A stretch of DNA of 64,000 bases from an uncultured bacterium. GTDB lineage: Bacteria; Muiribacteriota; Ozemobacteria; Ozemobacterales; Ozemobacteraceae. Position 1 is the stretch's first letter. Each line of letters starts with the position of its first letter. The translations under genes were made by a program, and so were the position numbers. The notes beneath the pieces are model-generated. The model saw only the letters and a program-made list of their open reading frames with translations. It was not told the origin of the DNA and searched no databases. Below are positions 3,639 through 62,372 of the stretch, piece by piece. Location of the stretch: the NCBI GenBank assembly GCA_964389325.1, contig CAYMEN010000003.1, positions 62,502-126,501 on the forward strand, given 5' to 3'.

Positions 3639-3750
3639 CGCTGATGAGGACGCGGATTGGCGCGGATGGCAGGAAAACAATATCGAATAGTTTAAATATT
3701 TATAAATACATGAACAGATGGTTCGATGCCATGAAACGGGAGAAATTTGT

Positions 3751-4893: not shown

Positions 4894-4896
4894 CGC

Positions 4897-8136
<3,240 letters not shown>

Positions 8137-10652: not shown

Positions 10653-11081
10653 TCAGCGGTTCCTGTATGTCATGCAGCTCATCGAGATGCTGCGCTTGAC
10701 CTGCGCGGTTTTCCAGGCGACCTCGGCCACCAGGACCTTGTAGATGAACGGCACCGTCGCGGGAACGGACGGGGTGATGACCGAGAGCTTCCGCTCGAAC
10801 CGGTCGTCGGCTTTGAGAACGAAGGTGGAGCCGTCCGCCTGCGTCACCTCGAGAGCATTCGCGTCGCGCGTTCCCGCCGCGAGGAACGGCGCATCGAACG
10901 GCCTGGACTGGGCGTAATCGAGAAGCTCGGTCGCGTAGGTGTAGGCGAGCACCTCGTCCCGGGTCTGCTGGGTGCCTGCCGCGCCCCGGGAGAAAATGAA
11001 AAAGATGGGGGAGAGGCACGCCGCGACAACGAGAACGGCGATCATGACTTCGGTGATGGTGAAGGCGTGTTTCTTGTTCAT
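10653..11081 (-). CDS. prepilin-type N-terminal cleavage/methylation domain protein (minor pseudopilin-like)
   Basis: MNKKHAFTITEVMIAVLVVAACL; start ATGA-overlaps stop of upstream 709-aa gene. The long ORF 10653..12251 in the track is this gene fused in-frame to an antisense artefact. Confidence 0.6.
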   Translation of the reverse strand: MNKKHAFTITEVMIAVLVVAACLSPIFFIFSRGAAGTQQTRDEVLAYTYATELLDYAQSRPFDAPFLAAGTRDANALEVTQADGSTFVLKADDRFERKLSVITPSVPATVPFIYKVLVAEVAWKTAQVKRSISMSCMTYRNR

Positions 11082-33542: not shown

Positions 33543-34937
33543 ATGGCCATCGAGATTCTCGTCGTCGACGATGAGGACATGATCCGGTGGACCCTCCGGG
33601 AGTCCCTGGAAGGCGAGGGCTACAAGATCTTCGATTTCCCGAACGGCCGGGACTTCATCCGCTACTTCTCTGAAAAGGGCGGAGATATTATACTGCTCGA
33701 TGTGCGACTGCCGGATGCGAACGGCCTCGACCTCCTGCTGGAAATCAAGCAGCTCGATCCGAACGTTCCCGTCGTCGTGATGACGGCGTTTGGCGACGTC
33801 GAGACGGCCGTGACCGCGATGAAACGCTGGGCATACGATTATCTCTCCAAACCCTACAACCTGGCGGAAGTGAATCTTCTCATCAAGAAGATCGTCGAGA
33901 CGTCGCTGCTGAAAAATCAGCTGCAATATATCCGCGAGCGCGTCGAAAACAGCTTCGCGCAGATTCTCGGCGACAACCTGAAGATCAGGCAGCTGCGCGA
34001 TCATATCGCCATGGCGGCGCAGAGCGACCGGACGACGGTCCTGATCCGGGGTGAGTCGGGGACCGGCAAGGAGCTGGTCGCCCGCCAGATCCACCAGCAG
34101 AGCACCCGGGCCGGCCAGCCGTTCATCGATGTGAACGCCGCTGCCGTCACCGGCACCCTGCTCGAGTCCGAGCTCTTCGGCCATGAGAAGGGCGCGTTCA
34201 CCGACGCCCAGCGGCAGAAAAAAGGCTTCTTCGAACTGGCCGACAAGGGAACGCTGTTCCTCGACGAGATCGGCGATCTCGACCCGAACCTGCAGGCCAA
34301 GCTGCTGCGCGTCCTTCAGGAAAAGCGCTTTCGGCGCGTCGGCGGCTCGACCGATATCACGGTCGACGTGCGCATCATCGCCGCCACCAACGCCGATCTC
34401 GAACGGGCCATGGAAGACGGCCGCCTGCGCCGCGACCTGTTCTACCGGCTGAACGTGTTCACCGTCTTCCTGCCGCCGCTCCGGGAGCGTCAGGACGACA
34501 TCCTGCTGCTTGCCCGCGCCTTTCTCGACCAGTTCCGCCGCGAGTTCTCGAAGGATATCTCCGGCTTTTCCCCGGAAGCCTGCGAGATTCTGCAGAAATA
34601 CCAGTTCCCGGGCAACGTGCGAGAGCTGAAAAACATCATCGAGCGGGCAACCCTTCTCGAAACGACGAACAAGATCAGGCCGGTCAGCCTTCCTGAGGAA
34701 ATGCGAAGCTGGCGCCGGCCCGCCGCCGCTCAGACGGCCGCTATGCCGGCCGACCAGCCATGGAAAACCCCGGGGTTCAATCTCAAGGAATACGTAGACT
34801 CCGTCGAGAAGCGGATCGTGCAGGACGTCATCAAGGAGTGTGACGGCAAAAAGGGAGAGGCAGCCAAGCACCTCGGCCTGAGCAGGTTCGCCCTGCGCCA
34901 TCAGTTGAAAAAGCACGGCATCGATGACGAGGGGTGA
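33543..34937 (+). CDS. sigma-54-dependent Fis-family response regulator (REC - AAA+ sigma-54 activator - HTH), NtrC-like; no cognate histidine kinase gene adjacent
   Basis: REC domain with DD...D phospho-acceptor (LLDVRLPD), Walker A GESGTGKE, GAFTDA, ESELFGHEKGAFTGA-like GAFTGA motif, C-terminal HTH. Confidence 0.9.
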   Translation: MAIEILVVDDEDMIRWTLRESLEGEGYKIFDFPNGRDFIRYFSEKGGDIILLDVRLPDANGLDLLLEIKQLDPNVPVVVMTAFGDVETAVTAMKRWAYDYLSKPYNLAEVNLLIKKIVETSLLKNQLQYIRERVENSFAQILGDNLKIRQLRDHIAMAAQSDRTTVLIRGESGTGKELVARQIHQQSTRAGQPFIDVNAAAVTGTLLESELFGHEKGAFTDAQRQKKGFFELADKGTLFLDEIGDLDPNLQAKLLRVLQEKRFRRVGGSTDITVDVRIIAATNADLERAMEDGRLRRDLFYRLNVFTVFLPPLRERQDDILLLARAFLDQFRREFSKDISGFSPEACEILQKYQFPGNVRELKNIIERATLLETTNKIRPVSLPEEMRSWRRPAAAQTAAMPADQPWKTPGFNLKEYVDSVEKRIVQDVIKECDGKKGEAAKHLGLSRFALRHQLKKHGIDDEG

Positions 34938-35028
34938 AAAATGTGTGAAAATGACACCTGAGAGGAGGGATGTGTAAAAATTGCACGCATCCGGCGTGAA
35001 AAATATTGTACATCACGTATTTCGGACA

Positions 35029-35044
35029 TGGCACGAATCCTGCT
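35029..35044 (+). promoter_or_regulatory. sigma-54 (-24/-12) promoter TGGCAC-N5-CTGC upstream of ptsN; candidate enhancer inverted repeat CACGC-N5-GCGTG at 34984-34998
   Basis: TGGCACgaatcCTGCT matches TGGCAC-N5-TTGC consensus with one mismatch, about 45 nt upstream of ptsN ATG. Confidence 0.6.
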
Positions 35045-35085
35045 TGATCTATGGCAGCCTTTGAGCTTACGCAGGAGAAAAACAG

Positions 35086-35535
35086 ATGATATCGGAGCTG
35101 CTCCAGGAAAACTTCATCAATCTCGATCTCGACGCCGGTTCCAAGAACGATGCGATCGCGAGCCTCTCGACGATGCTCTCGTCATCGGGCAAGGTCGTTG
35201 ATTGTACTTCCTTCGTGCGGGCCGTTCTCGACCGCGAGAAGCTCGGAAGCACCGCGATCGGTTCCGGGATCGCCATTCCTCATGCCCGTGCCAACACGGT
35301 CAATGAAGTGTCCATCGCTTTTGCCCGGTGTGGAAAGGGCGTCGACTTCAACTCCGTCGACGGCGACCCCGTCCATCTGATCTTCCTGCTTGCCGCCCCC
35401 ATCGAATCGGGCAGCCTGTATCTCAAGCTGCTGGCCCGCATCTCCCGCCTCCTTCGCTACCAGGATCTCATCGAAGAGCTGAAAAAGGCTCAGACGAAAG
35501 AAGACGTTATCCGCATCATCGCGTCGAAGGAATGA
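35086..35535 (+). CDS. ptsN: PTS IIA-like nitrogen regulatory protein PtsN (EIIA-Ntr)
   Basis: PTS_EIIA_2 fold sequence with active-site His in GIAIPHAR. Confidence 0.85.
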   Translation: MISELLQENFINLDLDAGSKNDAIASLSTMLSSSGKVVDCTSFVRAVLDREKLGSTAIGSGIAIPHARANTVNEVSIAFARCGKGVDFNSVDGDPVHLIFLLAAPIESGSLYLKLLARISRLLRYQDLIEELKKAQTKEDVIRIIASKE

Positions 35536-35561
35536 TCCGGCGAGGCCGGAGGAGTACGGGT

Positions 35562-36029
35562 ATGACGCTTGTTCATGCATACGAAGCCGGCGAAAGCAGT
35601 ACGGTCAGCATGTCCCCCGAGGGACTCTCGGTCCATATGCGCATCCCGGCCGAGCGCATGTACATGGCGAATGCGGTACTGACGCTTCGCGAGATCTGCG
35701 ACCACCTCTGCCTTTCCGAAGATCGGACCAACCGGGTCGTGCTGGTGCTCGAAGAGGCGCTGATGAACTCGATCGAGCATGCCTACAATGGTGACGGTGG
35801 CCTCATCGACCTGCAGTTTTCGATCGAAGGCCCGGAGTTCGTGATTGTCGTCGAAGATTTCGGCAACGGCATGGTCCATGACATCGACATCGATTCGCTC
35901 GAGGCTTCCGATCTGCTGTTCGAGCGTGGGCGCGGGCTGTGCATCATGAAAGGCATCTCCGACAGGGCTGTCGTCCAGTCGAGTTCGCGCGGCACGCGGG
36001 CCACGATGCTTTTCCAGCTCCAGAACTGA
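35562..36029 (+). CDS. GHKL-type anti-sigma-factor-like serine kinase (RsbW/SpoIIAB family, HATPase_c)
   Basis: N-box EEALMNSIEHA, G1 VEDFGNG, G2 GRGLCIMK; about 155 aa; GGAGG RBS. Confidence 0.65.
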   Translation: MTLVHAYEAGESSTVSMSPEGLSVHMRIPAERMYMANAVLTLREICDHLCLSEDRTNRVVLVLEEALMNSIEHAYNGDGGLIDLQFSIEGPEFVIVVEDFGNGMVHDIDIDSLEASDLLFERGRGLCIMKGISDRAVVQSSSRGTRATMLFQLQN

Positions 36030-36037
36030 GAGGAAGA

Positions 36038-36508
36038 ATGACCACAGACAACATCAGGGAACGAACCTTCGTTCTTATCAAGCCTGACGGCATCCAGCGC
36101 GGCAAAGCGGGAGAGATTCTCTCCCGCTTTGAGTCTAAAGGGCTGAAAATCGTCGGCATGAAAATGGTCCGCATCACCGGCGAACAGGCCGAGCGCCAGT
36201 ACGCCTGCCACAAGGGAAAAGCGTTCTACGAGTCGCTCGTCGCTTTCATGCTTTCCGGGCCGTGCCTGGCCCTGGTGCTCGAAGGCCGCAACGCGATCGA
36301 TATCGTTCGCAAGCTGATGGGCGCGACCAACCCGATCGCGGCCGAACCCGGCACCATCCGCGGCGACATGGCCCTCGACACCAAGCATAACCTCGTCCAC
36401 GGCTCCGACTCGCAGGCCAGCGTCGACCTCGAGACGCCGATCTATTTCGCGCCGAACGAGCTTTTCGAATACGACCTCGCGACCAGGGACTGGTTGTATT
36501 ACACCTGA
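36038..36508 (+). CDS. ndk: nucleoside diphosphate kinase
   Basis: ERTFVLIKPDG..., active-site NLVHGSDS (catalytic His), GAAGAATG RBS. Confidence 0.95.
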   Translation: MTTDNIRERTFVLIKPDGIQRGKAGEILSRFESKGLKIVGMKMVRITGEQAERQYACHKGKAFYESLVAFMLSGPCLALVLEGRNAIDIVRKLMGATNPIAAEPGTIRGDMALDTKHNLVHGSDSQASVDLETPIYFAPNELFEYDLATRDWLYYT

Positions 36509-36861: not shown

Positions 36862-38466
36862 ATGCGCCTTTCCCGCCTCTTGCTCGGATTGCTCCTCGTC
36901 GTTCTGTGCGCCGCTCTTGGCGCATGGGGCGCGCTCTCGTCGGTCGCGGGAAACGAGTATGTCGTGCGCTGGGGGGCAATGATGGCCGCCCAGAGCCTCG
37001 ATGCCGACATGCAGCTCGGAAGGGTGACCGGAACCGTGCTGGAAGCCCTGCGCATCGACGGCGTCCAGGGCATGGTGCGCCGCTCGCGGACGGGATTCGC
37101 GGCGGGGCCGGTCGAAATCTCGTTCAACCTGCGTGAAGCCGCTCACCGGGGCCTCGTCATCGGAACGCTGAACTGTCCCTGGCTGAAATTCTGGGGCGGC
37201 GTGCCGGTGCCGCCCTGGCTGGGCGGTTTGCCGGAGCTGCCTCCGCCGACGTGCCAGGCCGACCTGAAACTTCCGGTCGGCATCGACCGCATCCGCCTCG
37301 ACCGCATCGACTGGATGCCGACGGCATCCGGGCCGGTCGAGGTCACGGTCGCCTCGTTCGCGATCGATGCGGCATCACGGACGAACGGTCTCCAGCCCGT
37401 CTCGTTCTCGCTGTCGGTTCGGTTCAAAGGCGCCGAGTTCGCCGCCGCGGCTTTCGAGGGACACCTGGCCTCGACCAGGGCGTCCCTGTCTGGAAAAATA
37501 GCAGGAAATATATTTAGCTTTCCCGTCGACGCCGGCCTGAAGGTTTCGGTGAAGCGGGACGGCGTCTTCGCCGAGGGGACACTGGCCGAAACCCGGATCG
37601 ACCTGACGGTGCTGTCGAAATGGCTCAGTCCCCTCTGGCGGGACACCGTGCCGCTGTTCGTGAACGGAGGGATCACCGGGGGAGGAACCTGGGTGGCCCA
37701 GCCGAAGCTCGGCTTCGCGGGCCGGTTCCAGGGGCGGTTCGATCGCGTCGTGTTCGTGCTGACCGGGTTCAACCTGCCGCTCGCCGAACTGGACGCCCCT
37801 TGGAAATGCTTCGACGGCAAGCTGCGCGTCGAGCATGGAGACAGCCGTTTCATCGGCTTTCCAGCCTCCTTCAGCGGGACCGTCGGGCTCGCCGCCGGTC
37901 TGAAGCCTGACTGGAGCATCGAAGCCCGGGTCGCCGATCTTCCCCTGGCCGATCTCGTCGCAACCCTGCCGTGGGCGGTGCGATACGGGTACGGTGTTCC
38001 CGATCTGGCCGGCCTGGCAAGCATGACCGCCCGGTTCGACGGAACCGCGCCCGGCATCCTCGTCAACGCGACGGCCCTGGTGGCCCGGCAAACCGGATCG
38101 GCCGCGACATCGAGCATTTCGATCCGCTACCGTCACGCGGCCGGGCAGCCGGACCGCTGGGACCTCGAATCCTGCTGGACGGCTGAAACCGACATGCCGA
38201 AAGGTTTTGCCGGACTTCCCGTGCGCGTGGCCCCTTCGGGAGAACCGTTGCGGCCCCCGTTCGAATTCCGTTTCGAGGGATTCGGGACGTATCTCGACAA
38301 GCTCGATACGCGGCTGGGCATTTTCTGGAAAGACGGCGGTGCCTGGCAGGCAACGGGGCTCCTCGAAGGCCACGCCTGGGACGGCCCCGTCGTCGGTCAG
38401 GACGGCCAGCCGGTGGCGATCCCTCAGGATCTGGGCCTGATCGATTTTCTGCTGCCGGGAACGTAA
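36862..38466 (+). CDS. hypothetical secreted/membrane-anchored protein (about 535 aa); start uncertain (alternatives 36760, 36835)
   Basis: N-terminal signal-like MRLSRLLLGLLLVVLCAALGAWGA; coding GC3 bias; no recognisable catalytic motif. Confidence 0.4.
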   Translation: MRLSRLLLGLLLVVLCAALGAWGALSSVAGNEYVVRWGAMMAAQSLDADMQLGRVTGTVLEALRIDGVQGMVRRSRTGFAAGPVEISFNLREAAHRGLVIGTLNCPWLKFWGGVPVPPWLGGLPELPPPTCQADLKLPVGIDRIRLDRIDWMPTASGPVEVTVASFAIDAASRTNGLQPVSFSLSVRFKGAEFAAAAFEGHLASTRASLSGKIAGNIFSFPVDAGLKVSVKRDGVFAEGTLAETRIDLTVLSKWLSPLWRDTVPLFVNGGITGGGTWVAQPKLGFAGRFQGRFDRVVFVLTGFNLPLAELDAPWKCFDGKLRVEHGDSRFIGFPASFSGTVGLAAGLKPDWSIEARVADLPLADLVATLPWAVRYGYGVPDLAGLASMTARFDGTAPGILVNATALVARQTGSAATSSISIRYRHAAGQPDRWDLESCWTAETDMPKGFAGLPVRVAPSGEPLRPPFEFRFEGFGTYLDKLDTRLGIFWKDGGAWQATGLLEGHAWDGPVVGQDGQPVAIPQDLGLIDFLLPGT

Positions 38467-39914
38467 GGCGTGAACTCGATCCGCTCCTCCGGGATTTTCT
38501 GGTAAAACGTCAGGAGTGAACGGTCCGAATCGATGGCCATGCGCGATGCCCGGATCGAGAGAATGACGCCCTGCCGGAACACCCCGGCCGAGATCGTCGA
38601 GCGGGTTTCCTCCAGCAGGACGAGGGCGAGGTCGGCTTTTTTCAGCTCGAGTTTGGTGATCTGGTCGCCCAGGCTGGCGACCTTGTGCTCGAGACTGGCG
38701 CGAAGCGGCTCCGCCTTGCCAGACGGCAGCTTCTCGGGAAAATTTTTCACGAACAGCAGGTTCTTTTCCGCCTCGTAATGCTGGCGTCGGATATCGTTGA
38801 TGATCTTCACGACCAGGTTCAACCTGTTGAGGGCGGTATGGGAAACACCGCATGCGACCCGTGTTTCGATACCGACGGCGTTGCCCAGCTCCCCCGCGGT
38901 GATCGAGCGGAAGGAGATGATTTCGCCGCCGCTGAGCGACTTTTCGATCATCACCTCGCCGTTCACGTTGATGCGCGAGTTGAGCGCCGAGCGCAGGAAG
39001 AGGTCGCCCTGCACCGTAAGGCAGGCGTTTTCGGCATACAGCGCGCGAAGGTTGCCGAACACCTTGACTTCGTTCTTGTCTTCGATCTTCCCGGCCGTGC
39101 CGAGAATGCCCTTGCCCACGTCGAGATCACCGCCGACCGTGACGCGGGTGCCCGCCTCGATCATGCCGTCGACGCGCAGGTTCCCGGTCACGGTCACGGA
39201 AAACCCATACCGGATCGAGCCGCGCACGACGAGCGAGCCCTTGAAGCTGATGTGGCCAGTGCCGAAATCGACGTCGCCCGGAATGACCATGACCGGGGTG
39301 ACATGCACCGTAACCGAGTTCATGCCGGACTCGACGGTCAGCTGGCCTTCGCAGGTCGCCCGGGCGATGTCGTTCGTGCCGTCGGACTTCAGGACGACGT
39401 TGCGCCCCGCCACGACCCGCTTGTCCTTGCCGGGAACGGCGGGAATCGGCTTGCCGAAGACCGAGTGGCCCGACTCGCCCTTCGTGGCCGGCCTCTTCAC
39501 CAGGATGATCTCGTCGGTCGAGACGCTGCGGAACAGGTCGCGCGTCTTGAAGTCCAGCGTCCCGTCAGGGCGCGTCAGGTGCTCCATCGACGGCCGGGGC
39601 ACGAGGATGTCGATATGCGCCGGCTCACCATCGAGTGGTTGTATTCCTGTCGCTATTTTTCTTGGCGGGAGGATGGTGCGGCGCGCGACGATGCGCGGCA
39701 GGTCGTTCGTGACGAAGCCGCGGTCGAGGCCGAACAGGATGTTCTCGGCGAGGGCGCTCTGGATGGTCAGGCAGGCGGCCTTGTCATCGAACGAGTCGGG
39801 AAACGCCTCGATCGAGAAATACGCTTCCGTCTCGAGCCGGTTCGTCGTCAGGAAGAGGGAAAAACCGGGAAGCTCCCGTGCGAGGAAGGTTCCCGGTTTC
39901 ATTTGGTGAGACAA
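38424..39914 (-). CDS. FapA/DUF342-like protein (left-handed beta-helix-like repeats plus C-terminal coiled coil)
   Basis: Repetitive G-x-hydrophobic beta-helix-like segment (VTVTGNLRVDGMIEAGTRVTVGGDLDVGKGILG...) and C-terminal coiled coil, architecture typical of DUF342. Confidence 0.5.
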   Translation of the reverse strand: MSHQMKPGTFLARELPGFSLFLTTNRLETEAYFSIEAFPDSFDDKAACLTIQSALAENILFGLDRGFVTNDLPRIVARRTILPPRKIATGIQPLDGEPAHIDILVPRPSMEHLTRPDGTLDFKTRDLFRSVSTDEIILVKRPATKGESGHSVFGKPIPAVPGKDKRVVAGRNVVLKSDGTNDIARATCEGQLTVESGMNSVTVHVTPVMVIPGDVDFGTGHISFKGSLVVRGSIRYGFSVTVTGNLRVDGMIEAGTRVTVGGDLDVGKGILGTAGKIEDKNEVKVFGNLRALYAENACLTVQGDLFLRSALNSRINVNGEVMIEKSLSGGEIISFRSITAGELGNAVGIETRVACGVSHTALNRLNLVVKIINDIRRQHYEAEKNLLFVKNFPEKLPSGKAEPLRASLEHKVASLGDQITKLELKKADLALVLLEETRSTISAGVFRQGVILSIRASRMAIDSDRSLLTFYQKIPEERIEFTPYVPGSRKSIRPRS

Positions 39915-39921
39915 CGCCCGT

Positions 39922-42378
39922 TCAACCGGCCCGCGGGCCGTTGTTCAGGCCGACCCGGCGCTCGACGTCGGCGATGCTGACGCCCTGGCTGGAGAGGAAG
40001 TTCTCGAACCACGCCGTGTCGACGCTGAACGAGCGCAGCTCACCGCGGAACGCGATGATCAGCTGTTCGAGCTCGACCAGGTCGCCGACCCGGAGCTTGG
40101 TCTTCTGCTGGCCGCTCATGGAGCGGAGATTGTCGAGAGCCGACCGGACGGCGCTTGCGAACTCATACCGGGTCACCTTCGAGGCATCGTAGAACGGCAT
40201 GCCGGGCAGGAGGCCCTTCGAGATCACGCGCTTGAGCGACTTGAACACCCAGTGGTTCGCCGGCACATAGACGAAGCCGGTTCCGGCGGAGCCGGCGGAC
40301 TGGTTCATGCGCGCAGCGGCGGCGGCGGCTGTCTGGGGCATCGGTGCGCGGCCGTCGGCCAGCGGGATGTAGAACGCCGAGTCCGCCTCGGCGGCGCGGG
40401 GCCGGGCAAGAGTCGTCTTGCGGGCCTGGCGCTCGTTCTGCGTCGTGAACTGCCACGAGTAGCGGGCGACGAGCTGCTCGCCCGACTGGCTCTTGATCTT
40501 GTCGCTGATGAGAACCTTGTACTGTGTGTCCGCCTCGAGCGGGGCGGCGGGGATGAAGACGGCCCGCTTCTGGCGTCCGTCGTAGGACACGCGCCCTTCG
40601 ACGCGCTCCTGGCGGCCGAAGACCGAGATATTGATCGGGTTCACGGTATTCTGCTGGGCGGGTTCGTTGAAGTGAATGACGATCTTCGCATTGCGGGCGA
40701 CCTGCTCGGCGTTTGCCGCCGGCAGAATGCCGGTCACCTTGAAGGTGGAGAGGGCTTCGCGGGTGGCCGCCTTGCGGGGAGCGGCGGTCCTGGCGGCCTG
40801 CCGGGGAGCAGGGGTGTTCCAGTCGGCATCGGCTTCCATGGCGCTGTCGTTTCCGGCGGGTGCCGCCTCGTCGCCGAAGCCTTCCAGTTCCCTGGATTCC
40901 TGGGTCGTTTCCCGCATCACCGGCTGGGCGCGGCGAGGAACAGCCTGCTTCGCGGCGACGGGCGCCCGGCGCACGGGGGCCGCCGCGAACGCTTCGGGCA
41001 TGGCGGGAGCCGCGGCGGGCGAGGTGGTCGCGAAGGTCGCGGCGAGAGCGTTCTGCAGGGGGCGGCCGGTCATGTCGGTCACGCCCTGGGTGATGATCAC
41101 GCGATAGGAGCGGTTCGCGTCGAGCACGCCGACGGGGGTCAGCACCGCGCGCTTCTGGCCGCTCAGATACTGGATCTTCGCGGGAACGGGGCCGAAATCG
41201 TCCTCGACCCGGAAGGTGAACTCGTTCAGGGTTTCGGGGCGGACTTCCTGGTTGAAGGCCACCGTCACCGGCTGGCTGAGGTTGGTGACGACGGCGCCGC
41301 TCTGCGGCGACATGCCGACCAGCTTCAGGGGAATCGCCGCCTGCATGGCGATATCGCCGTAGGCGTCGGCCACGGGGGCGTCGAACGAGGCATTGTTGAC
41401 CAGGCCCTGGCGACGGGAGGGAGCCGCGACCGGCAGGGCGGCATCGCTGGGCGCTTCCTCGAGAACGTTGTCGGGAACGACCACGTCGACGTCAGCCGAA
41501 CCGGCGCCGCCGATGCGGAAAGGAATGACGGTGTTCTTCGGAAGTCTCGCGCCCGAGCTTCCCGCGAGAGTCTGGCTGATGGCGATGCCATACTCGTTGC
41601 CGGATTTCAGCGGCTGACGGGGAACCAGCGTCAGGGTCTTCAGGTCGCGCGACAGGCGGTAATCGACGCCGACCGCTTCCCGGTTGCACATCAATTTCAC
41701 CGGGGCATCCTTGAGGGAGGTGATGTCGAGCGCTTCGCTGAAGCTGACTTCGAGCGGATTCTGCGGGTTGATCGTGCCGCCGGACATGTTGGCGTTGGTG
41801 ATCAGCAGCCTCGCCGCCGCTGCGCTGCCCATGTCGGTGGGCATCGCGGCTGCCGCGGCGTTCTGCATCTGGGAATTCACGGCAGGCTGAACGCCGGTCG
41901 AGCGCACGCCGCCGGCAGAGATGCGGAAGTTCCACATTTTCTCGGCCGTTCCGCTCACGCCGTCGCCGAAACTGAGCTGGGCGGTGTACATCTGACCCGG
42001 CTGAAGACCGGACTTGGGCTTGAACATCACCTGCCGGGCGGCGGGATTGTAAAACAGCTCACCCTCGATGGGCTGGCCGTTTTTGAACAGATTGAGGTTG
42101 ATCGTCTGGTAGAACGCCTGCGAAAGGGCCCCGCCAAACTCGACCGTCAGGGGGGTGGCGGCCGAAACGTCCGAGGCCATGTCCGCCGGAACGGTCTTGA
42201 CGACCTGAACCGCCTGGCCGGCGTTCGCCTGCATTCCGAACGCAGCAGAGGCGTGCAGTGCGGGACCGGCACTTACCAGCAGGGCTCCAAGGACGACGGC
42301 TCGAATTCCATGGTTCATGAGTAACCTCCTCGAAAGGTCCAGACGATTCGGTATCATCATCGGCAAAATCGACCACAA
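39922..42378 (-). CDS. large secreted protein with several Ig-like (SbsA/Big-like) domains and a C-terminal S-layer homology (SLH) domain
   Basis: Signal peptide; repeated Ig-like blocks (V.TVPADMASDVSAATPLTVEF; MSPQSGAVVTNLSQPVTVAF; ILPAANAEQVARNAKIVIHF); C-terminal FVYVPANHWVFKSLKRVISKGLLPG..FYDASKVTRYEFA matches SLH consensus. Confidence 0.65.
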   Translation of the reverse strand: MWSILPMMIPNRLDLSRRLLMNHGIRAVVLGALLVSAGPALHASAAFGMQANAGQAVQVVKTVPADMASDVSAATPLTVEFGGALSQAFYQTINLNLFKNGQPIEGELFYNPAARQVMFKPKSGLQPGQMYTAQLSFGDGVSGTAEKMWNFRISAGGVRSTGVQPAVNSQMQNAAAAAMPTDMGSAAAARLLITNANMSGGTINPQNPLEVSFSEALDITSLKDAPVKLMCNREAVGVDYRLSRDLKTLTLVPRQPLKSGNEYGIAISQTLAGSSGARLPKNTVIPFRIGGAGSADVDVVVPDNVLEEAPSDAALPVAAPSRRQGLVNNASFDAPVADAYGDIAMQAAIPLKLVGMSPQSGAVVTNLSQPVTVAFNQEVRPETLNEFTFRVEDDFGPVPAKIQYLSGQKRAVLTPVGVLDANRSYRVIITQGVTDMTGRPLQNALAATFATTSPAAAPAMPEAFAAAPVRRAPVAAKQAVPRRAQPVMRETTQESRELEGFGDEAAPAGNDSAMEADADWNTPAPRQAARTAAPRKAATREALSTFKVTGILPAANAEQVARNAKIVIHFNEPAQQNTVNPINISVFGRQERVEGRVSYDGRQKRAVFIPAAPLEADTQYKVLISDKIKSQSGEQLVARYSWQFTTQNERQARKTTLARPRAAEADSAFYIPLADGRAPMPQTAAAAAARMNQSAGSAGTGFVYVPANHWVFKSLKRVISKGLLPGMPFYDASKVTRYEFASAVRSALDNLRSMSGQQKTKLRVGDLVELEQLIIAFRGELRSFSVDTAWFENFLSSQGVSIADVERRVGLNNGPRAG

Positions 42379-42434
42379 CCTTTACCCCATTGCCCGAATT
42401 CGGAGTCATCCCCACATTTTCCCGCAATTGCGCC

Positions 42435-42463
42435 GTAGGGGCGGGTTTGAAACCCGCCCCTAC
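42435..42463. promoter_or_regulatory. GC-rich perfect palindrome GTAGGGGCGGGTTT g AAACCCGCCCCTAC in the divergent intergenic region between the SLH-protein gene and the V-ATPase operon
   Basis: 14-nt arms, read directly; position between divergent starts suggests operator or structured leader rather than terminator. Confidence 0.4.
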
Positions 42464-42563
42464 AGACGATTTATGAATGAGGACACATCAAAAAGTCCGG
42501 TGTCATAAGAATTTCGATGTTGTCGGGCCAGCGGATGCAATCGCTCGAACAGCCCCCCTCGAT

Positions 42564-42593
42564 TTGCCCTGAGAAGGGAGGGTGTGGTATAAA
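42564..42593 (+). promoter_or_regulatory. candidate sigma-70 promoter for V-ATPase operon: TTGCCC - 18 bp - TATAAA with upstream TGG
   Basis: Hexamers read from sequence about 65 nt upstream of atpE ATG. Confidence 0.35.
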
Positions 42594-42659
42594 CCCCGAA
42601 CCCGGTCATGATATTCGCCCGGATTTCAACGGCCGCAGGTCACCGAAGGAGTTACCGCC

Positions 42660-43271
42660 ATGAGTATCGATGTCGCAACCTTCACCAAGCAGCTTCGCGA
42701 GGACGGTATCGAAGCCGCCCGCCGCGAGGCCGAAAAGATCCTGGCCGATGCGAAGGCGAAAGCCGAACACGAGAAAGAGCAGGCGAAGGCCGCGGCCCGC
42801 CGCATGGTCCAGGATGGGGAGGCCGAGATCGCCCGGCACCGGCAGAAGGTCGAAGCCGAGCTCAGGCTCGCCGCCCGCGACCTGGTTCTCGACGTCAAGA
42901 AACGCCTGGAAAACCTGACCCGCGGCCTTCTCCAGCCGGTCATCGCCGAGAAGCTGTCGGCGGCCGACGTCGTCGAATCCTCCCTCCGGGAACTCCTGAA
43001 AACCCAGAAAACCGGCCGCGAATGGGAAGCGGCGCTCGGCCCCGTCGTCGGCGCGAAGCTGACCCAGGCCGCGCTGAGCGACCTGTTCAAAACCGCGGAC
43101 GGCCGCGTGAAGCTTGGCGAGGCGCTCAAGTCGGCCGGCTTCACCCTGCGCGACACCGCTTCCGGCGAAGTCGTCGAACTGACCGAAGCCTCGGTCGCCG
43201 ATGCCTTCGGCCGCCTGGTCGCGCCCCAGCTCCGCGCCCTCCTGGACAAGTCCGAAAACGCCGGAGCCTGA
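42660..43271 (+). CDS. atpE: V-type ATP synthase subunit E
   Basis: About 200-aa all-alpha, A/E/K-rich coiled-coil protein at head of V-ATPase operon; GAAGGAG RBS. Confidence 0.75.
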   Translation: MSIDVATFTKQLREDGIEAARREAEKILADAKAKAEHEKEQAKAAARRMVQDGEAEIARHRQKVEAELRLAARDLVLDVKKRLENLTRGLLQPVIAEKLSAADVVESSLRELLKTQKTGREWEAALGPVVGAKLTQAALSDLFKTADGRVKLGEALKSAGFTLRDTASGEVVELTEASVADAFGRLVAPQLRALLDKSENAGA

Positions 43272-50657: not shown

Positions 50658-53513
50658 TCAGGCGTGTTTGCGGAAGTGCCGGAGCCAGGCGAGGAATTTT
50701 TCGGTCTGGGAGCCGATCAGTTCGGTCAGGAGAATCGCCTCGCGGTCCTGGTAGTTCTTGAGGGCGAACTCCGACAGCAGGTTGAGGCAGCCGGGGTCGC
50801 TGAACAGTTCGAGCAGGCGGTCGAAATGATGCCTGAACTCCTCGGCCTTTTTCTGCCGCTCCTCGGTCGAAAGGCTGGGACGACGCAGTTTGAGCCGCTC
50901 GAGGAGGGACAGCGGCTGGTTGAACAGCTGGGAGAGGCAGGTCGGGCCCCGGGGCTGGCGCGCCCAGATATACAGGATGTCGAGCATCGCGGTGAGCCGC
51001 ATGTCGCGATCGTGCGAACTCAGGCGCGGAAGCAGTTCGCTGAGGTCGCGCTTGCGGATGACGACGCGCTGTCTGTATTTCCCGAAGCCTTCGATGAAGC
51101 CGCCGACGACGTCCGACCAGAGTTTCGCCTGGACGATGCTCGGGATGCCGATCAGGTTCCCGATCGGCGCGAAGGCCGTCGCGAACGGCCAGGCGAGCAC
51201 CGTGCGGAAGAAGTTCGCCCGGATGACGCGTCGGTCGAAGTTGCGCAGCCTGTTGTGGGTGCTGATGTAGATCCCGTTCGCCATGCACAGGAAGAAAAAC
51301 TTGGCGGCCTCGAACAGGAAGCCCGCCTTTTCGAGCGGCCAGCTGTCGTCGAACGCGATCTTCACGAAGCCGAGGATCGGGACACTGAAACCGGTCCAGA
51401 ATAAAGACTGTGATATATTATCAAAGTTGACGTTGCGCAGGCTCCAGTTCCGGATGAGGATCCCGGAGCTGGCGAGCAGGTCGACCAGCATGTTCCGGGT
51501 GCCGGTGATCAGGAACCAGATCACGGCGAACATCACGCCGGCCAGCTGGCCGAACTGGTAGTTCATGAACGAGAACGCCACGATGAACCCGATGGCGATG
51601 CGCCAGAGGCTCTTGAGGCCGGGGTTCACATACGCCCAGAACTCGCCGGGCGGAACGAGGTCGAGCGCTTCCTCGTCTCCGACCAGGTTCCGGAAGGGCT
51701 TGCCGATTTTGCCCATGCAGACGACGTCCGACCCGCTGCCGATCGGCGCATCGGGGCTGTCGTCCTTCTTCCCGTCGTGGATGACGAGGTCGGCGATCGG
51801 CCGGGGGACCTTGTAGTGTGACTCGAGAAACTCGGGGCGCACCGACTCGGGAATGTCGCTGACCTTGATGAAACCCATTCCCGGGATCGTCGGGTCGCGG
51901 CCGGTCGAATCGCTGCCGCAGACCGGGATCAGCGGCCGGCGCGCGGTGAGTTCCCGGGCCTTTTGCACCTGCTGCCGGACGCCGCCCGTGATCCCGTGCT
52001 GTTCGAGGAAGTTCACGACGTCGTCCTCGGTGCCGTTGTTGAGCAGGTAGACGAACTTGTTGAAGATGATCAGGTCGTTCGGGTTGCGCGCCGAGCTGTC
52101 GCGCAGGTTCAGCGTCTCGATGTGCGAGATGCGGGCGATGTGCTTGAGCAGGTGCTGCATCGAGTCCTTGAGCCCGATCTCGAGGGGGTGGATCATGACG
52201 ATCCGGCCGCCCTGGCCGATCAGGGTGTCGAGTATCGGCTCCTCCTCGGCGAACTCGCTGTCGTAATCGACGACGTCCCGGCCCTCCATGTAGGAGGCCC
52301 GCAGGCTTTCCGGCGTCATCGTCTCGTACTGCTCGCGCACGGCCTCATACTGCGACGAGATGTTCTTGAACTCCCACTCGCTGTAGATGCCCCGCGTGAG
52401 GCGGTCTTCGGCGGCGAGCACCTGCGCCTTCAGCTGGAGGACGCGGCGCTGGAGGATGTCGCGGAACTTCTGGAACAGCAGTTCGCCGATATGGACTCTC
52501 GAAATCTGCCCGCACGCAACGATCCGGTCGAGCTCCTCGAGGGTGAGCGGCGGGAACCAGCAGGGGCTGTCGGGTTCCCAGCCGGAGTTGAGCCGTGGCC
52601 GCTGGAGCGTGTTGAACCGCTCGACGGCGGCGACCATCGTCTTGTGGCGGCTCGCCGCGTTCGTGCGGAGGCCGCTCAAAAACGGGGTGAAAATCATCCG
52701 GCGCTCGTCGAAAAACGCGAAAAACGCTTTGCTGTCGGCGGTTTCGGGCGGCACGTACATGTAGTGACGCCGGGCGCCGCTGTGGCCGACGCTGAACTCG
52801 ATACCGATGTTCACCTTGATGCCGAGAATGTTGCCGGCGGTGATCGCCTCATGGATCATCCGGCGCTCGTCGAGGTTCGAATACACGATGGTGAGCCGGG
52901 AAATGCCCTTCACGAAAGCGTCCAGCAGCACCTGCGTCGGGGTCTTGCGGCCTTCCGACAGGAAGTCGTGAACGTGGTCGTCCCAGCCCATGTTCAGCTC
53001 GCGGAGCGGCTTTTCCTCTTCGGGGACTTCGACCAGGTGGAGTTTGTTCAGGAACCGGCGGACGACCGCTTCCTGCCCGAACGAGACCAGGCCGAAGTCG
53101 GCCATGGCTTCCATCTGGCGCCGGCGGTTGCTGCGCGATTTGACGACTTCCTTCATCAGGTCGATCTGGATGCGCGCCGTGTTCAGCGGCATGTTGATCG
53201 TCTTCGCGTGGAGGGACTGGTCGACCATCATCGAGAGGGCGGCCAGCCGCTCCTCGGCGGAGTTCGGAGAAAGGTCACGCGCGATCTTGATGTAGGCGCC
53301 GGCGATGCTGAGACGCCGCTTGCCGAAATCGCGAACGAAGCCGCCGGGGTGGGAGAGGTGCCGGACGTTCAGCCGGGTCGGGGGTTCGTCGAGTTTGTGG
53401 TTGACGGCATCGACCAGCGACTCGATTTCGTTGTTGAAGCTCAGCCACTCGATCAGGCTGGACAGCAGACCGACAGCCGTGTCGTGGGATGTTTGCAGCA
53501 GCCAGCGGAGCAT
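50658..53513 (-). CDS. large hypothetical membrane protein (951 aa): about 600-aa soluble N-terminal region, then a multi-TM block, then a C-terminal soluble region
   Basis: Continuous ORF with coding GC3 bias; hydrophobic helices between about residue 600 and 800 (e.g. WRIAIGFIVAFSFMNYQFGQLAGVMFAVIWFLITG); no motif recognised. Confidence 0.5.
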   Translation of the reverse strand: MLRWLLQTSHDTAVGLLSSLIEWLSFNNEIESLVDAVNHKLDEPPTRLNVRHLSHPGGFVRDFGKRRLSIAGAYIKIARDLSPNSAEERLAALSMMVDQSLHAKTINMPLNTARIQIDLMKEVVKSRSNRRRQMEAMADFGLVSFGQEAVVRRFLNKLHLVEVPEEEKPLRELNMGWDDHVHDFLSEGRKTPTQVLLDAFVKGISRLTIVYSNLDERRMIHEAITAGNILGIKVNIGIEFSVGHSGARRHYMYVPPETADSKAFFAFFDERRMIFTPFLSGLRTNAASRHKTMVAAVERFNTLQRPRLNSGWEPDSPCWFPPLTLEELDRIVACGQISRVHIGELLFQKFRDILQRRVLQLKAQVLAAEDRLTRGIYSEWEFKNISSQYEAVREQYETMTPESLRASYMEGRDVVDYDSEFAEEEPILDTLIGQGGRIVMIHPLEIGLKDSMQHLLKHIARISHIETLNLRDSSARNPNDLIIFNKFVYLLNNGTEDDVVNFLEQHGITGGVRQQVQKARELTARRPLIPVCGSDSTGRDPTIPGMGFIKVSDIPESVRPEFLESHYKVPRPIADLVIHDGKKDDSPDAPIGSGSDVVCMGKIGKPFRNLVGDEEALDLVPPGEFWAYVNPGLKSLWRIAIGFIVAFSFMNYQFGQLAGVMFAVIWFLITGTRNMLVDLLASSGILIRNWSLRNVNFDNISQSLFWTGFSVPILGFVKIAFDDSWPLEKAGFLFEAAKFFFLCMANGIYISTHNRLRNFDRRVIRANFFRTVLAWPFATAFAPIGNLIGIPSIVQAKLWSDVVGGFIEGFGKYRQRVVIRKRDLSELLPRLSSHDRDMRLTAMLDILYIWARQPRGPTCLSQLFNQPLSLLERLKLRRPSLSTEERQKKAEEFRHHFDRLLELFSDPGCLNLLSEFALKNYQDREAILLTELIGSQTEKFLAWLRHFRKHA

Positions 53514-56895: not shown

Positions 56896-57386
56896 CCGGC
56901 AGGAGCGGTTCGAAGCGCGGGTTCATCGCGTTCTACTCGTTCATTCTTCTCCTCATCCTGGCCATTTTCGGCATCTCCTACTGGGCCGTTTCGCGCCTCT
57001 CGACCAGTTCCATCGTCCAGGAGGCCGGCCGCATCCGCGCGAGATGTCTCGCCCAGGCGGGCGTCGAGAAGGTGTTGATCAACATCGTCAACCAATACCG
57101 GCTGGGCAACCGCAATCTCGGGTATCCGGGCAAGTTCAGCCGCGACCGCACCGACAAGGAATACAACGTCGAGTTCGGGGACGGCTCGTACCGGGTCGAG
57201 TCGGTCCAGCCCTACACGGCGCCGGGCAGCAGCAAGGTCATGACGCAGGTGCCGTATTACCAGCGCCAGACGGTCATCGGGACCTACGACATCTGGAAGA
57301 TCGTCGTCGTCGGAGAAGTGCCGGAAGGCCCCCAGGCGCGGGTCGAGACGCTTGTCAAGATTATCAGGCAGTATGCCCGATACTGA
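56892..57386 (+). CDS. GspK-like / uncleaved pseudopilin-like membrane protein
   Basis: KRGFIAFYSFILLLILAIFGISYWAV N-terminal helix resembling GspK; ATGA overlap with upstream pseudopilin. Confidence 0.4.
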   Translation: MTGRSGSKRGFIAFYSFILLLILAIFGISYWAVSRLSTSSIVQEAGRIRARCLAQAGVEKVLINIVNQYRLGNRNLGYPGKFSRDRTDKEYNVEFGDGSYRVESVQPYTAPGSSKVMTQVPYYQRQTVIGTYDIWKIVVVGEVPEGPQARVETLVKIIRQYARY

Positions 57387-57411
57387 GGGACGGAGCCGTG
57401 GGAGGAAATAT

Positions 57412-58725
57412 ATGATAAAGTATACAAATACGGCATGGGGACTCGCTCGCGCCGCGCTTCTCGGAGGAATCCTGCTCGTTTCCGCCGCCGACGCCCGGGC
57501 GGCCAATGACGGCCCGCAGTTCGACGGGTTTTCCGCCAAGGTGTCGGGTGATATCTACGGCCAGCCCCGGGTCATCGAGGACATGGACGGGGACGGGAAA
57601 CAGGACCTGATCTTCGGCGCCACGGACGGCAAGGTACATGTCTACTCGTCGACCGGCAAGGAGATCATCCGGCCGCCGAACTGGCCGAAACAGACGGGAG
57701 CGCCGATCCTTTCCGACGTGTCGGTCGCCGACCTCGACAACGACGGGAGCTCCGAGGTCATCGTCAGCTCCCTGAACGGGAAGGTTTACTGCATGGACCG
57801 CCGGGGCGTCCAGAAATGGGAAGTGAACACCCGCGGCACGATCCGTCTCTCGTCCCCCGAGGTCGCCGACGTCGACGGGGCGGGCAACATGTCCGTCTTC
57901 ATCGGATCGAAAGCGGGCACCGTGAGCCGGATCGACAAGGACGGGCGGCTGATCTGGGAGGTCCCGATGTCGACCTCCGTCTCGTCGCGCGTCGTCGCTG
58001 CCGACATCAACGGCGACGGCACCAAGGAGCTCGTCGCCAAGGACGACAACGGGAAGGTGACGATCCTGAACATGCGCGGCTCTGTGGAGAGCGGCTGGCC
58101 CCAGTCGACGGTCCCGAACCTGACCTGGCCCTTCGAAGTCGGTGCCGGCGACGTCAACGGCGACGGCGTCAAGGAGATCTTCACGACGACGCCTGAAAAA
58201 AAGTTTTTACTATGGAACAGGGACGGCAGCCTCCGGACGCAGTTCGGCCTTTCCGACGCGTCGCATTCGGCCCCTCGTCTTGCGGACCTGAACGGGGACG
58301 GCCGCGACGAGTTCGTCATCGGCCAGGCGGACGGGGTGGTGATGGTCTGCGATCGTGATGGCAAGCCGCTCCCGGGATGGCCCTTCAAGACGAGGCATTC
58401 GGTCTATCACACGCCGCAGGTGATCGACGTCGACGGCGATGGCCGGCTCGACGTGGTGTTCACGGCCTGGAACCCCGAAGGCGTCGGCAAACAGGCGGGC
58501 TACGTGATGGCGCTGAGCCGCGACGGGAGCCCGCTTCACGGATACCCGAAATACATCGGGAAATCCATCGCCCCGCTGACGTTTGCCGATCTCGACGACG
58601 ACGGGTATCTCGAGATGATCGCCGCGGGCGGCATCAACTACACCGACGACCAGCTCCACGTCTTCCCGACCGGCGCCCGCGTCCAGATACGGCTGGCGAT
58701 TCTCGGCAGCGAGGTGTCGTTCTGA
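57412..58725 (+). CDS. secreted FG-GAP/integrin-alpha-like beta-propeller protein with repeated D-x-D/N-G-D-G calcium-binding loops
   Basis: Signal peptide; eight D.DGDG-type loops (DMDGDGKQD, DLDNDGSSE, DVDGAGNMS, DINGDGTKE, DVNGDGVKE, DLNGDGRDE, DVDGDGRLD, DLDDDGYLE) at about 45-55-aa intervals; GGAGG RBS. Confidence 0.65.
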   Translation: MIKYTNTAWGLARAALLGGILLVSAADARAANDGPQFDGFSAKVSGDIYGQPRVIEDMDGDGKQDLIFGATDGKVHVYSSTGKEIIRPPNWPKQTGAPILSDVSVADLDNDGSSEVIVSSLNGKVYCMDRRGVQKWEVNTRGTIRLSSPEVADVDGAGNMSVFIGSKAGTVSRIDKDGRLIWEVPMSTSVSSRVVAADINGDGTKELVAKDDNGKVTILNMRGSVESGWPQSTVPNLTWPFEVGAGDVNGDGVKEIFTTTPEKKFLLWNRDGSLRTQFGLSDASHSAPRLADLNGDGRDEFVIGQADGVVMVCDRDGKPLPGWPFKTRHSVYHTPQVIDVDGDGRLDVVFTAWNPEGVGKQAGYVMALSRDGSPLHGYPKYIGKSIAPLTFADLDDDGYLEMIAAGGINYTDDQLHVFPTGARVQIRLAILGSEVSF

Positions 58726-60257: not shown

Positions 60258-61001
60258 ATGGGTGTGACGACGAAACACAACCGCGGCCAGGAACTTTCCC
60301 CCGACCTCGATGTCGGTGAGAACGGCGTTGCCGTCGAAGTGCCGGTGACCCGCCCCTTCGAAGGGTACACCTATATCCGCAAGGAGTGGGTCGATCAGGA
60401 AGACGGGATCGAGAAGGTCACCTTCAACATGACGCTCGGGCCGGTCAATCTTCCCGCCGACTGGAGCCGCACCCAGACATTCGTCATGATGCCGGAATGG
60501 GGCACGTCCCCCCTCCGCCGCACCTGGATCGTGCGACTGCCGACGCATCTCGAAGGGCATGATCAGTATCTCTTTCACTATTTTTTCCAAACCTACTATG
60601 CGAACGGCGAGGAACGCGTCAGCAGCATGTTCGCCCAGTTGATCCAGCCGCATGAGATCGAGTATATCGATTACGGCGGCGACCTGGTCAACGTACGGCT
60701 CCATTGGAGCGTCGGCGACTGGTCCTATGCGCAGGATACCGAGCTCGAGGCCGACGGCATCGAGTGGGGAAGCGAATTTTCCGTCAGCAGTGCGCCCTAC
60801 CGCGCCAAAGACCGTCTGTATCAGAACGGCCGCATTCTCGTGATGCGCCGCCTGCCTTTCCCACGAAGGTTTCACGGCCTGATCTGGGCCCCGAAGGGCG
60901 CCGAGGTCCGTTTCTGCTTCCAACTCGTGCGACACCGTCCCGACGGCCAGGATCTGCTGTGGGACAACAATTTCGGCAAAAATTACTCTCTGACCATCTA
61001 A
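60258..61001 (+). CDS. hypothetical protein with CBM20/21-like (starch/glycogen-binding-type) C-terminal motif
   Basis: C-terminal LLWDNNFGKNYSLTI resembles the conserved WDNN.G.NY end of CBM21/CBM20 domains; AAGGAGAG RBS. Confidence 0.4.
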   Translation: MGVTTKHNRGQELSPDLDVGENGVAVEVPVTRPFEGYTYIRKEWVDQEDGIEKVTFNMTLGPVNLPADWSRTQTFVMMPEWGTSPLRRTWIVRLPTHLEGHDQYLFHYFFQTYYANGEERVSSMFAQLIQPHEIEYIDYGGDLVNVRLHWSVGDWSYAQDTELEADGIEWGSEFSVSSAPYRAKDRLYQNGRILVMRRLPFPRRFHGLIWAPKGAEVRFCFQLVRHRPDGQDLLWDNNFGKNYSLTI

Positions 61002-61598: not shown

Positions 61599-62372
61599 AT
61601 GATGACGATGCCGATCGACGATGCCGCCGTCATTTTCCTGATCGGCGGGCTGGGAGCCGGGAAGACCGAGCTCGCGCTGAACCTTGCTGTCCGGCGGGCG
61701 CGCAGGCTCGGCCCCGGCCGCTCCTATCTGCTCGACCTCGACATCGTCAACCCGTTCTTCCGCGTTCGGCACCTCCGCGACGCCCTGACTCGCGAAGGCG
61801 TCAAGCTGATCGCCCCCGACGCGCAGGTGACAGCGAACGACATGCCGGCGATTCCCGGCGCGGCGTTCGGCGTTCTCCAGAGCCCCGACACGGCTGTCGT
61901 CTGCGACGTGGGCGGGGGAGAGCTGGGGCTGCGCGTCCTCGGCCGACTTGCCCAGCAGGCGGCGGCGCGAAAGGCCCGGACGTATTTCGTCATCAATCCC
62001 TACAGGCCGGGCTTCACGAGCCTCGACACGATGCGGCGCAGCTTCGACATTCTCACCGAGCTTTCGGCCCTGCAGGTGACGCATATCGTTGCAAACCCGC
62101 ATCTGATCAATGAAACGACCCCCGACCTCTTCGCCGCCGGTCTCGAGAAGGTCCGGACCTTCGCGGCGGAGATGAACCTGCCGATCGCATTTTCCGTGGC
62201 GGCACCGGCGCTTCTCGGACAACTCCCGCACGAGGCGGCGAGTCCCTCGGACGAAGCGCCCACGAACCTGGTGAAGTATGACGGTCAGCCGCTCCTCGTG
62301 CTGGACCGGTACTGGGAAACACCCTGGATCATAGGAAAGGAACAGGAGGTAGCAACATGCCCAAATGGGTAA
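61599..62372 (+). CDS. P-loop NTPase of unknown function
   Basis: Walker A GGLGAGKTE near N-terminus; overlaps start of korD by 16 nt. Confidence 0.45.
   Translation: MMTMPIDDAAVIFLIGGLGAGKTELALNLAVRRARRLGPGRSYLLDLDIVNPFFRVRHLRDALTREGVKLIAPDAQVTANDMPAIPGAAFGVLQSPDTAVVCDVGGGELGLRVLGRLAQQAAARKARTYFVINPYRPGFTSLDTMRRSFDILTELSALQVTHIVANPHLINETTPDLFAAGLEKVRTFAAEMNLPIAFSVAAPALLGQLPHEAASPSDEAPTNLVKYDGQPLLVLDRYWETPWIIGKEQEVATCPNG

Follow-up and report, generated by a model that had tools for sequence, protein, structure and literature searches.

The 64,000-nucleotide stretch of contig CAYMEN010000003.1 analyzed here (the window), from an uncultured member of the Ozemobacteraceae, carries on its minus strand a gene for a secreted protein with four Ig-like Big_5 domains and a single, divergent SLH domain at the C-terminus (the Big_5/SLH protein). 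This C-terminal module is homologous to the SLH domain and stalk of the outer-membrane tether OmpM. We favor with moderate confidence the view that the product is a Sec-exported, soluble periplasmic scaffold or adaptor, held at the wall by an OmpM-derived C-terminal anchor, and that the FapA/DUF342 protein encoded just downstream is a separate, cytoplasmic protein. The family is a modest variation on known biology, an OmpM anchor module in a new arrangement and with a divergent pocket, and not a new type of envelope or scaffold. The gene and the parts of its product are as follows, with residues numbered on the 798-residue protein unless stated (818-residue numbering is 20 higher).

39922..42318, minus strand: coding sequence of the Big_5/SLH protein, 798 aa, start ATG 42318, stop codon included
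39922..42378, minus strand: longest open reading frame (ORF) of the gene, 818 aa from TTG 42378
42325..42331, minus strand: Shine-Dalgarno sequence GAGGAGG, read directly in the sequence
42244..42318, minus strand: signal peptide, residues 1–25 (MNHGIRAVVLGALLVSAGPALHASA, then AF), from an AxA motif and hydrophobicity, with an inferred cleavage site
41914..42207, minus strand: Big_5 Ig-like domain 1, residues ~38–135 (approximate), from Pfam and a gap-free conserved block in alignment A2
41509..41811, minus strand: Big_5 Ig-like domain 2, residues ~170–270 (approximate), from Pfam and conservation in A2
41023..41343, minus strand: Big_5 Ig-like domain 3, residues ~326–432, from Pfam and conservation
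40441..40758, minus strand: Big_5 Ig-like domain 4, residues ~521–626, from conservation and Pfam (best stretch 546–646 in 818-residue numbering)
40354..40398, minus strand: short linear motif AEADxAFxIPLxD, residues 641–655, in the linker 5' of the SLH domain, conserved in A2
40114..40278, minus strand: divergent single SLH domain, residues 681–735 (701–755 in 818-residue numbering)
39949..40101, minus strand: helical tail, residues 740–790, related by homology to the coiled-coil stalk of OmpM and SlpA, from alignments with SlpA and P0188 and predicted helices

The Shine-Dalgarno sequence lies 6 nt 5' of ATG 42318, and the database protein P0001, 100% identical to the window protein, is 798 aa long; the true product is therefore taken to have 798 residues. 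The preliminary description of this DNA had reported a secreted protein of 818 aa; the reading frame and the predicted secretion stand, and the length does not.

The C-terminal module has an SLH fold and is recognized by sensitive profile comparisons. A profile of 31 non-redundant C-terminal modules (alignment A1), which share only 38–55% mutual identity, matches the SLH domains in solved structures of Veillonella OmpM (8bz2, E 5.9e-9; 8bym, 7e-8; also 8bys, 8.1e-8) and Deinococcus SlpA (7zgx, 4.7e-6), the latter alignment running into the coiled-coil stalk, to profile position 97. When 1.84 billion representatives were searched exhaustively with HMMER, the complete module proved limited to the Big_5/SLH family and two sister proteins, and the matches that follow are OmpM-like proteins whose one SLH domain is N-terminal. 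One of these, P0188, bears the terminal barrel signature VYSRF and clusters with a protein from the Riflebacteria metagenome-assembled genome (MAG) that also carries family locus L025; hhalign aligns it with the module over 117 columns (98.4% probability, E 9.2e-15). The aligned part, P0188 residues 20–140, comprises the SLH domain and the stalk (residues 90–140), and the model of the module has predicted helices at 68–117, so that the OmpM-like order of one SLH domain and then a coiled-coil stalk is found here too. These profile, HMMER and hhalign matches establish the SLH domain as real and place it in the OmpM/SlpA tether class, with a short helical tail resembling the stalk behind it. A single C-terminal SLH domain at residues ~700–760 had been proposed earlier, and its position is borne out at 701–755 in the 818-residue numbering. 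P0149, one of the sister proteins (encoded at L054:1786-4611 on a metagenome contig of low GC), combines seven Big_5 domains with a coiled coil and, in the same position, an SLH domain that Pfam does detect, and it ends in a hydrophobic helix resembling the anchor of Omp-alpha; neither a FapA gene nor a TamB-like gene is found near it.

In OmpM, the SLH residues with known roles are a sugar-contact Trp, a sugar-contact Gly (G58) and the pyruvate-binding Arg of the TRAE/TRYE motif (PMC10628300). The Trp and the Arg are present in all 31 modules of A1, as is the Tyr of TRYE, and the Glu in 30/31. OmpM and SlpA trimerize on their stalks, with the three SLH domains making binding grooves (PMC10628300). 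We propose that the Big_5/SLH protein would be exported by the Sec system to the periplasm of a diderm Riflebacterium and retained there in soluble form, and that its last ~120 residues are the wall-anchoring module of the OmpM tether (SLH plus short coiled-coil stalk), copied to the C-terminus. Three chains may then trimerize on the stalk-like tail, as OmpM and SlpA do, and the three SLH domains would form grooves for a pyruvylated secondary cell-wall polymer (SCWP) or for peptidoglycan, fixing the protein to the wall. Each trimer would display twelve Ig-like domains, four per chain, on flexible linkers, and could act as a wall-anchored scaffold or adaptor with a housekeeping role in the envelope. 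In Ozemobacter-like lineages, FapA, with its β-helix like the C-terminal domain of MinC, would be co-transcribed and remain in the cytoplasm. What the data establish directly are the domain identities, the kinship of the module with the SLH domain and stalk of OmpM, the phyletic distribution and the gene geometry; trimer formation, wall ligand, periplasmic location and scaffold function are inferred.

Several observations weigh against this view. Pfam PF00395 (gathering threshold 20.8 bits) gives no SLH match, even with the isolated C-terminus at E ≤ 10. Within the pocket, the position of G58 is not conserved (S/F/Y/D/G/N), and practically all of the 31 modules lack the PDGT loop (D and G lost in 31/31, T in 30/31), so that the module may bind another ligand or none. 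The monomer model has the tail folded back on the SLH domain, like the compact 8BZ2 form, which its authors consider non-binding (PMC10628300). No csaB or other SCWP gene is present among the 33 ORFs of the window, and this view does not explain why the gene is so closely coupled, throughout a lineage, to one for a cytoplasmic FapA.

The Pfam result has an explanation in the pocket itself, since loss of the PDGT loop and of a conserved sugar-contact Gly leaves Pfam blind to the domain. None of 105 homologs carries a precomputed PF00395 domain, the family is without SLH annotation in any database, and phmmer with the whole protein against the PDB gives marginal matches to OmpM (E ~0.15). The preliminary description had named failure of an HMM search to recover an SLH domain as grounds for dropping its claim; PF00395 is indeed silent, and the more sensitive profiles reverse that verdict.

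The same divergence is the basis of the main rival, in which the module has ceased to bind the wall and serves oligomerization or docking, for example by co-assembly with the OmpM stalk or by binding another ligand, the protein then being an OmpM-associated periplasmic factor. Besides the missing loop, the unconserved Gly and the nil Pfam score, it can draw on the homology between the tail and the stalk of the phylum's own OmpM, and on the Phe found in 29/31 modules at the polyamine-marker Tyr, where that OmpM has Asn. We regard it as unlikely, as the Trp and the TRYE Arg, the residues tied most closely to SCWP recognition, are invariant at 38–55% identity, which is hard to explain without ligand binding, and nothing points to hetero-oligomers. 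The marker residue also bears on ligand choice: at this Negativicute position (Y36 of OmpM1) SlpA has Lys, and the difference between the Phe here and the Asn of the Riflebacterial OmpM-like protein hints that the module may read a wall feature other than that read by the OmpM of the same cell.

N-terminal to the anchor, Pfam Big_5 (PF13205, gathering threshold 23.6 bits) scores 178.5 bits over four stretches (5.8e-53), in keeping with the several Ig-like domains first noted. The four cores are free of gaps and 60–95% conserved throughout the phylum, and the linkers joining them are variable and rich in Ala, Pro and Gln. Domain 3 is the most conserved, with 95% column conservation at residues 361–380, and in the AEADxAFxIPLxD motif F649, I651, P652, L653 and D655 are nearly invariant in A2. 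Apart from the signal peptide (KD19 1.65, residues 7–25) the protein has no hydrophobic segment, and it lacks a lipobox cysteine at the signal peptide, a β-barrel and a C-terminal hydrophobic anchor. Copper binding of the CopC type was considered and rejected, the weak, sub-threshold CopC matches being cross-matches within the Ig-like superfold. Family members of a gut/rumen clade (a subset of P0044-P0090; L038, L039, L041, L043-L045, L052) are 870–990 aa long; inserted in them is a helical segment rich in Gln and Asn, with a match to PF01442 (apolipoprotein A1-like).

All named homologs of the Big_5/SLH protein are from Candidatus Riflebacteria/Ozemobacteraceae. A scan of GTDB species representatives recovered 46 Riflebacteria loci, one per genome, among them those of Ca. 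Ozemobacter sibiricus and Ca. Rifleibacterium amylolyticum, and one remote match in Muiribacteriota. Five MAGs (L022, L035, L043, L044 and L025) labelled Erysipelotrichia, Methylomirabilis, Avigastranaerophilus or 'bacterium' have the same gene in the same synteny and are probably misclassified or contaminated bins. Witwinowski et al. count the Riflebacteria with those diderm Terrabacteria whose outer membrane is tethered by OmpM; for Ca. O. sibiricus, their data sheet has an OmpM, a CsaB and four SLH proteins recognized by Pfam, and no Pal, Lpp, OmpA or LolA, and the CsaB entries in their supplement are RCK79352.1 (Ca. Ozemobacter sibiricus) and HAE38474.1 (another Riflebacterium). Hence, an SLH domain in a diderm Riflebacterium is to be expected and is no paradox.

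These envelope data also bear on whether the protein is instead exported beyond the outer membrane, as a cell-surface S-layer protein or adhesin like the Big_5/SLH proteins of monoderms. Big_5 repeats combined with SLH domains are typical of monoderm surface proteins, and the extended linkers of low complexity and the variants reaching 870–990 aa likewise recall surface proteins. However, genes for TolC/OEP, an HlyD-type adaptor and an AcrB RND pump are present at 2130–8136 of the window, as the preliminary description had correctly seen for TolC and RND, and together with BamD/YfiO and an OmpM-type outer membrane they place the SLH ligand on the inner side of the outer membrane. Neither a barrel nor a lipobox nor a recognizable secretion signal is present that would take the protein further; its gap-free domain cores are highly conserved over the phylum, unlike fast-evolving surface layers, and each representative genome has one locus. 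A location on the cell surface is therefore improbable.

The gene that follows the Big_5/SLH gene head-to-tail is predicted to encode a cytoplasmic DUF342 protein.

38424..39902, minus strand: FapA/DUF342 coding sequence, 492 aa from ATG 39902, from the ORF call and Pfam FapA_N and FapA

Its longest ORF is 38424..39914 (minus strand; 496 aa from TTG 39914), and between the longest ORFs of the two genes there are 7 nt, the spacing originally given. The start is most likely ATG 39902, judging from an ortholog in L006 that is 94% identical and annotated at 492 aa, and the gap would then be 19 nt; the identification as FapA-like itself holds. The product scores 86.6 bits with FapA_N (PF20250; cut-off 27; 1.7e-24) and 134.8 bits with the FapA β-solenoid (PF03961; cut-off 31; 5.6e-39), and has neither a transmembrane (TM) segment nor a signal peptide, so we predict that it lies outside the extracytoplasmic structure. 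An AF2 model (pLDDT 85) has a β-helical core like the C-terminal β-helix of MinC. The protein is not a bactofilin, by either the Pfam PF04519 threshold or its nearest structural neighbor, and not a MinC, which would combine that β-helix with an N-terminal FtsZ-inhibiting domain (NCBIfam MinC 18 bits, cut-off 273). Searching the PDB with FapA by phmmer gave zero matches, the FapA neighborhood contains no flagellar genes, and a literature search returned nothing usable on the function of DUF342/FapA or on the function or ultrastructure of Ozemobacter/Rifleibacterium.

The pairing of the two genes is lineage-specific. Of the species representatives whose sequence extends far enough downstream, 11 (L007-L013, L016, L023, L031 and L050) have FapA behind the Big_5/SLH gene and 29 (at least 1.5 kb downstream) lack it there; over most of the phylum, the Big_5/SLH protein functions in its absence. 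On a neighbor-joining tree of Big_5/SLH proteins, the FapA-positive loci are deep Ozemobacter-like lineages with 42–50% identity to the window protein, and the loci without FapA fall into a large derived clade and a second, small clade. The FapA orthogroup comprises 14 clusters (43–95% identity) whose named members are all Ozemobacteraceae, and its members on informative contigs all share the contig with a Big_5/SLH homolog; outside it, similarity falls to generic DUF342 proteins at 27–30% identity, and no close ortholog was found away from this locus. The junction measures 1–19 nt in 9/11 FapA-positive loci (132 nt in L050; start ambiguous in L011). This tight, conserved junction and the confinement of the orthogroup to the locus make co-expression likely in Ozemobacter-like lineages, and the two genes are probably translationally coupled there; the operon proposed earlier is thus likely in these lineages but does not extend to the 29 loci without FapA. 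At its 3' end, FapA overlaps a convergent TamB-like gene by 43 nt in the window and by 13–76 nt in all 11 FapA-positive species, which leaves no room for a terminator and implies antisense overlap of the two transcripts.

It had been suggested that FapA and the SLH/Ig protein jointly build a novel envelope scaffold, with FapA as the polymer-forming component. The tight, operon-like junction, the restriction of this FapA subtype to the neighborhood of the Big_5/SLH gene and its β-helical core are what such a scaffold would predict. Compartment, fold and distribution all disfavor it: FapA lacks a signal peptide and a TM segment, which puts the two products in different predicted compartments, its β-helix resembles the C-terminal domain of MinC and not a bactofilin, and it is missing from the 29 loci with no close ortholog elsewhere. 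We consider a joint scaffold highly improbable. Taken as a whole, the preliminary description is partly confirmed in its observations and partly supported in its interpretation.

The convergent gene beyond FapA encodes, by sequence similarity, a short TamB/AsmA-like protein.

36862..38466, plus strand: short TamB/AsmA-like neighbor, 534 aa, convergent, with an inner-membrane anchor; its 3' end overlaps that of FapA by 43 nt

No Pfam family matches it at E ≤ 1, and no TamB or AsmA domain scores. It has a single TM segment, at the N-terminus (KD19 2.44), and a profile of its family (alignment A3) aligns in three segments with E. coli TamB (9xdc_B; E 1.7e-8), so that an N-terminal inner-membrane anchor is combined with similarity to the TamB β-taco repeats. 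In 38/42 species loci this gene lies tail-to-tail with the Big_5/SLH gene, mostly 0–105 nt away, or overlaps FapA. As a control, the 26 loci with full flanks were compared: the TamB-like gene is present in 25/26, a V-ATPase operon lies nearby in 20–21/26 depending on the subunit, and NDK, HATPase, EIIA and the sigma-54 regulator are found in 19–21/26. The adjacency was therefore rejected as strong functional evidence; the region is a conserved syntenic block, and adjacency within it is weak evidence of a functional link. In the window, the block adjoining the locus (33543–36508) encodes a sigma-54 response regulator, a PTS EIIA of the EIIA_2/Ntr type, an RsbW-like HATPase_c_2 protein and NDK, and it is also kept in genomes without FapA. 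The FapA of Vibrio is regulated by EIIA(Glc), which belongs to a family different from that of the EIIA in the window.

A more speculative reading, to which we give little credence, makes the Big_5/SLH protein a wall-anchored periplasmic partner of the TamB/AsmA-like protein, with a pocket for a wall ligand unlike that of OmpM and with FapA positioning or timing assembly from the cytoplasm in Ozemobacter-like lineages. An inner-membrane lipid-bridge protein of ~540 aa would be too short for the periplasm and might dock on an SLH-fixed platform of Ig repeats at the peptidoglycan, in an envelope that is Lol-less and OmpM-tethered; the lost DGT loop and Gly and the Phe at the polyamine-marker position may reflect a distinct wall ligand. 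Its probability is low because adjacency in a syntenic block is its sole support.

Upstream, the intergenic region that separates the Big_5/SLH gene from the divergent V-ATPase operon contains a perfect palindrome.

42435..42463, no strand assigned: perfect palindromic hairpin GTAGGGGCGGGT-TTCAA-ACCCGCCCCTAC, 12-bp stem, in the divergent promoter/leader region

The hairpin occurs once in the window and may be part of the Big_5/SLH gene leader. It was not found in the loci of related species, an Rfam scan of 38300–42750 that included it gave zero matches, and promoter and terminator scans gave results at chance level. Elsewhere in the window, four ORFs with coding-like GC3 (50658–53513 and 11078–13207, minus strand; 60258–61001 and 61599–62372, plus strand) match no Pfam family at E ≤ 0.001; proteins of 951 and 709 aa are among their products. 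A gene at 57352–58725 (plus strand) encodes an FG-GAP β-propeller protein with a weak dockerin-type match, and the L005 locus is likewise flanked by a gene for a dockerin/EF-hand protein.

OmpM-type SLH tethering is now seen as the ancestral link between outer membrane and wall in diderm Terrabacteria. In the Big_5/SLH family, a soluble Ig-repeat protein appears to have taken over the SLH-plus-stalk module of the tether at its C-terminus, where the module would serve across a candidate phylum as a general anchor to the wall in the periplasm. Divergent copies escape PF00395 surveys at the gathering threshold, and SLH inventories of diderm Terrabacteria are therefore probably underestimates. The variant pocket, in which Trp and Arg are kept and the loop and Gly are lost, is a natural test case for SLH ligand specificity.

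Compared with the OmpM/SlpA tethers (Veillonella parvula OmpM1, 8BYM/8BZ2; Deinococcus radiodurans SlpA, 7ZGX; P0188), the module of the Big_5/SLH protein is C-terminal and not N-terminal, is preceded by four Ig-like domains, lacks the PDGT loop and G58, and has a short stalk of ~50 residues. Witwinowski et al. define OmpM as an SLH domain and a C-terminal outer-membrane β-barrel porin in one chain. As the Big_5/SLH protein has no barrel, the rest of the chain being four Big_5 domains and linkers, and its SLH domain is C-terminal, it is not an OmpM and would not insert into the outer membrane. SLH proteins other than OmpM are known in diderm Firmicutes (PMC10628300), and C-terminal periplasmic SLH extensions have been described on trimeric autotransporter adhesins of Negativicutes and other Terrabacteria (bioRxiv 10.64898/2026.01.22.700529). 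These adhesins share with the Big_5/SLH protein a C-terminal periplasmic SLH module associated with a trimer (here a trimer by analogy), the WAY and TRYE motifs and a diderm Terrabacterial host. However, they have an outer-membrane barrel and a surface passenger, neither of which is present here, where the N-terminal part consists of Big_5 repeats. The Omp-alpha type of Thermotoga (SLH domain, coiled-coil rod and C-terminal membrane anchor) similarly combines SLH and coiled coil in a wall-to-membrane connector and is matched by the sister protein P0149 in its hydrophobic C-terminal helix, whereas the window protein lacks such an anchor and has a far shorter coiled coil. Monoderm SLH proteins with Ig repeats, such as Bacillus anthracis Sap and Paenibacillus alvei SpaA, share non-covalent SLH anchoring to the wall and the TRAE-type Arg, but they are surface exposed and have three tandem SLH repeats per chain, usually N-terminal (profile similarity E 0.06). 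The FapA of Vibrio vulnificus (flagellar assembly protein A, DUF342) has a polar, flagellum-related function; the FapA of the window has no flagellar gene context and 27–30% identity to generic DUF342 proteins, and it shares with MinC the C-terminal-like β-helix without the FtsZ-binding N-terminal domain. Finally, the TamB-like neighbor shares with the periplasm-spanning TamB/AsmA-like proteins an N-terminal TM anchor and has profile similarity to E. coli TamB (E 1.7e-8), but is ~534–550 aa long compared with 1259 aa for TamB, has no Pfam TamB/AsmA domain and has no TamA partner nearby.

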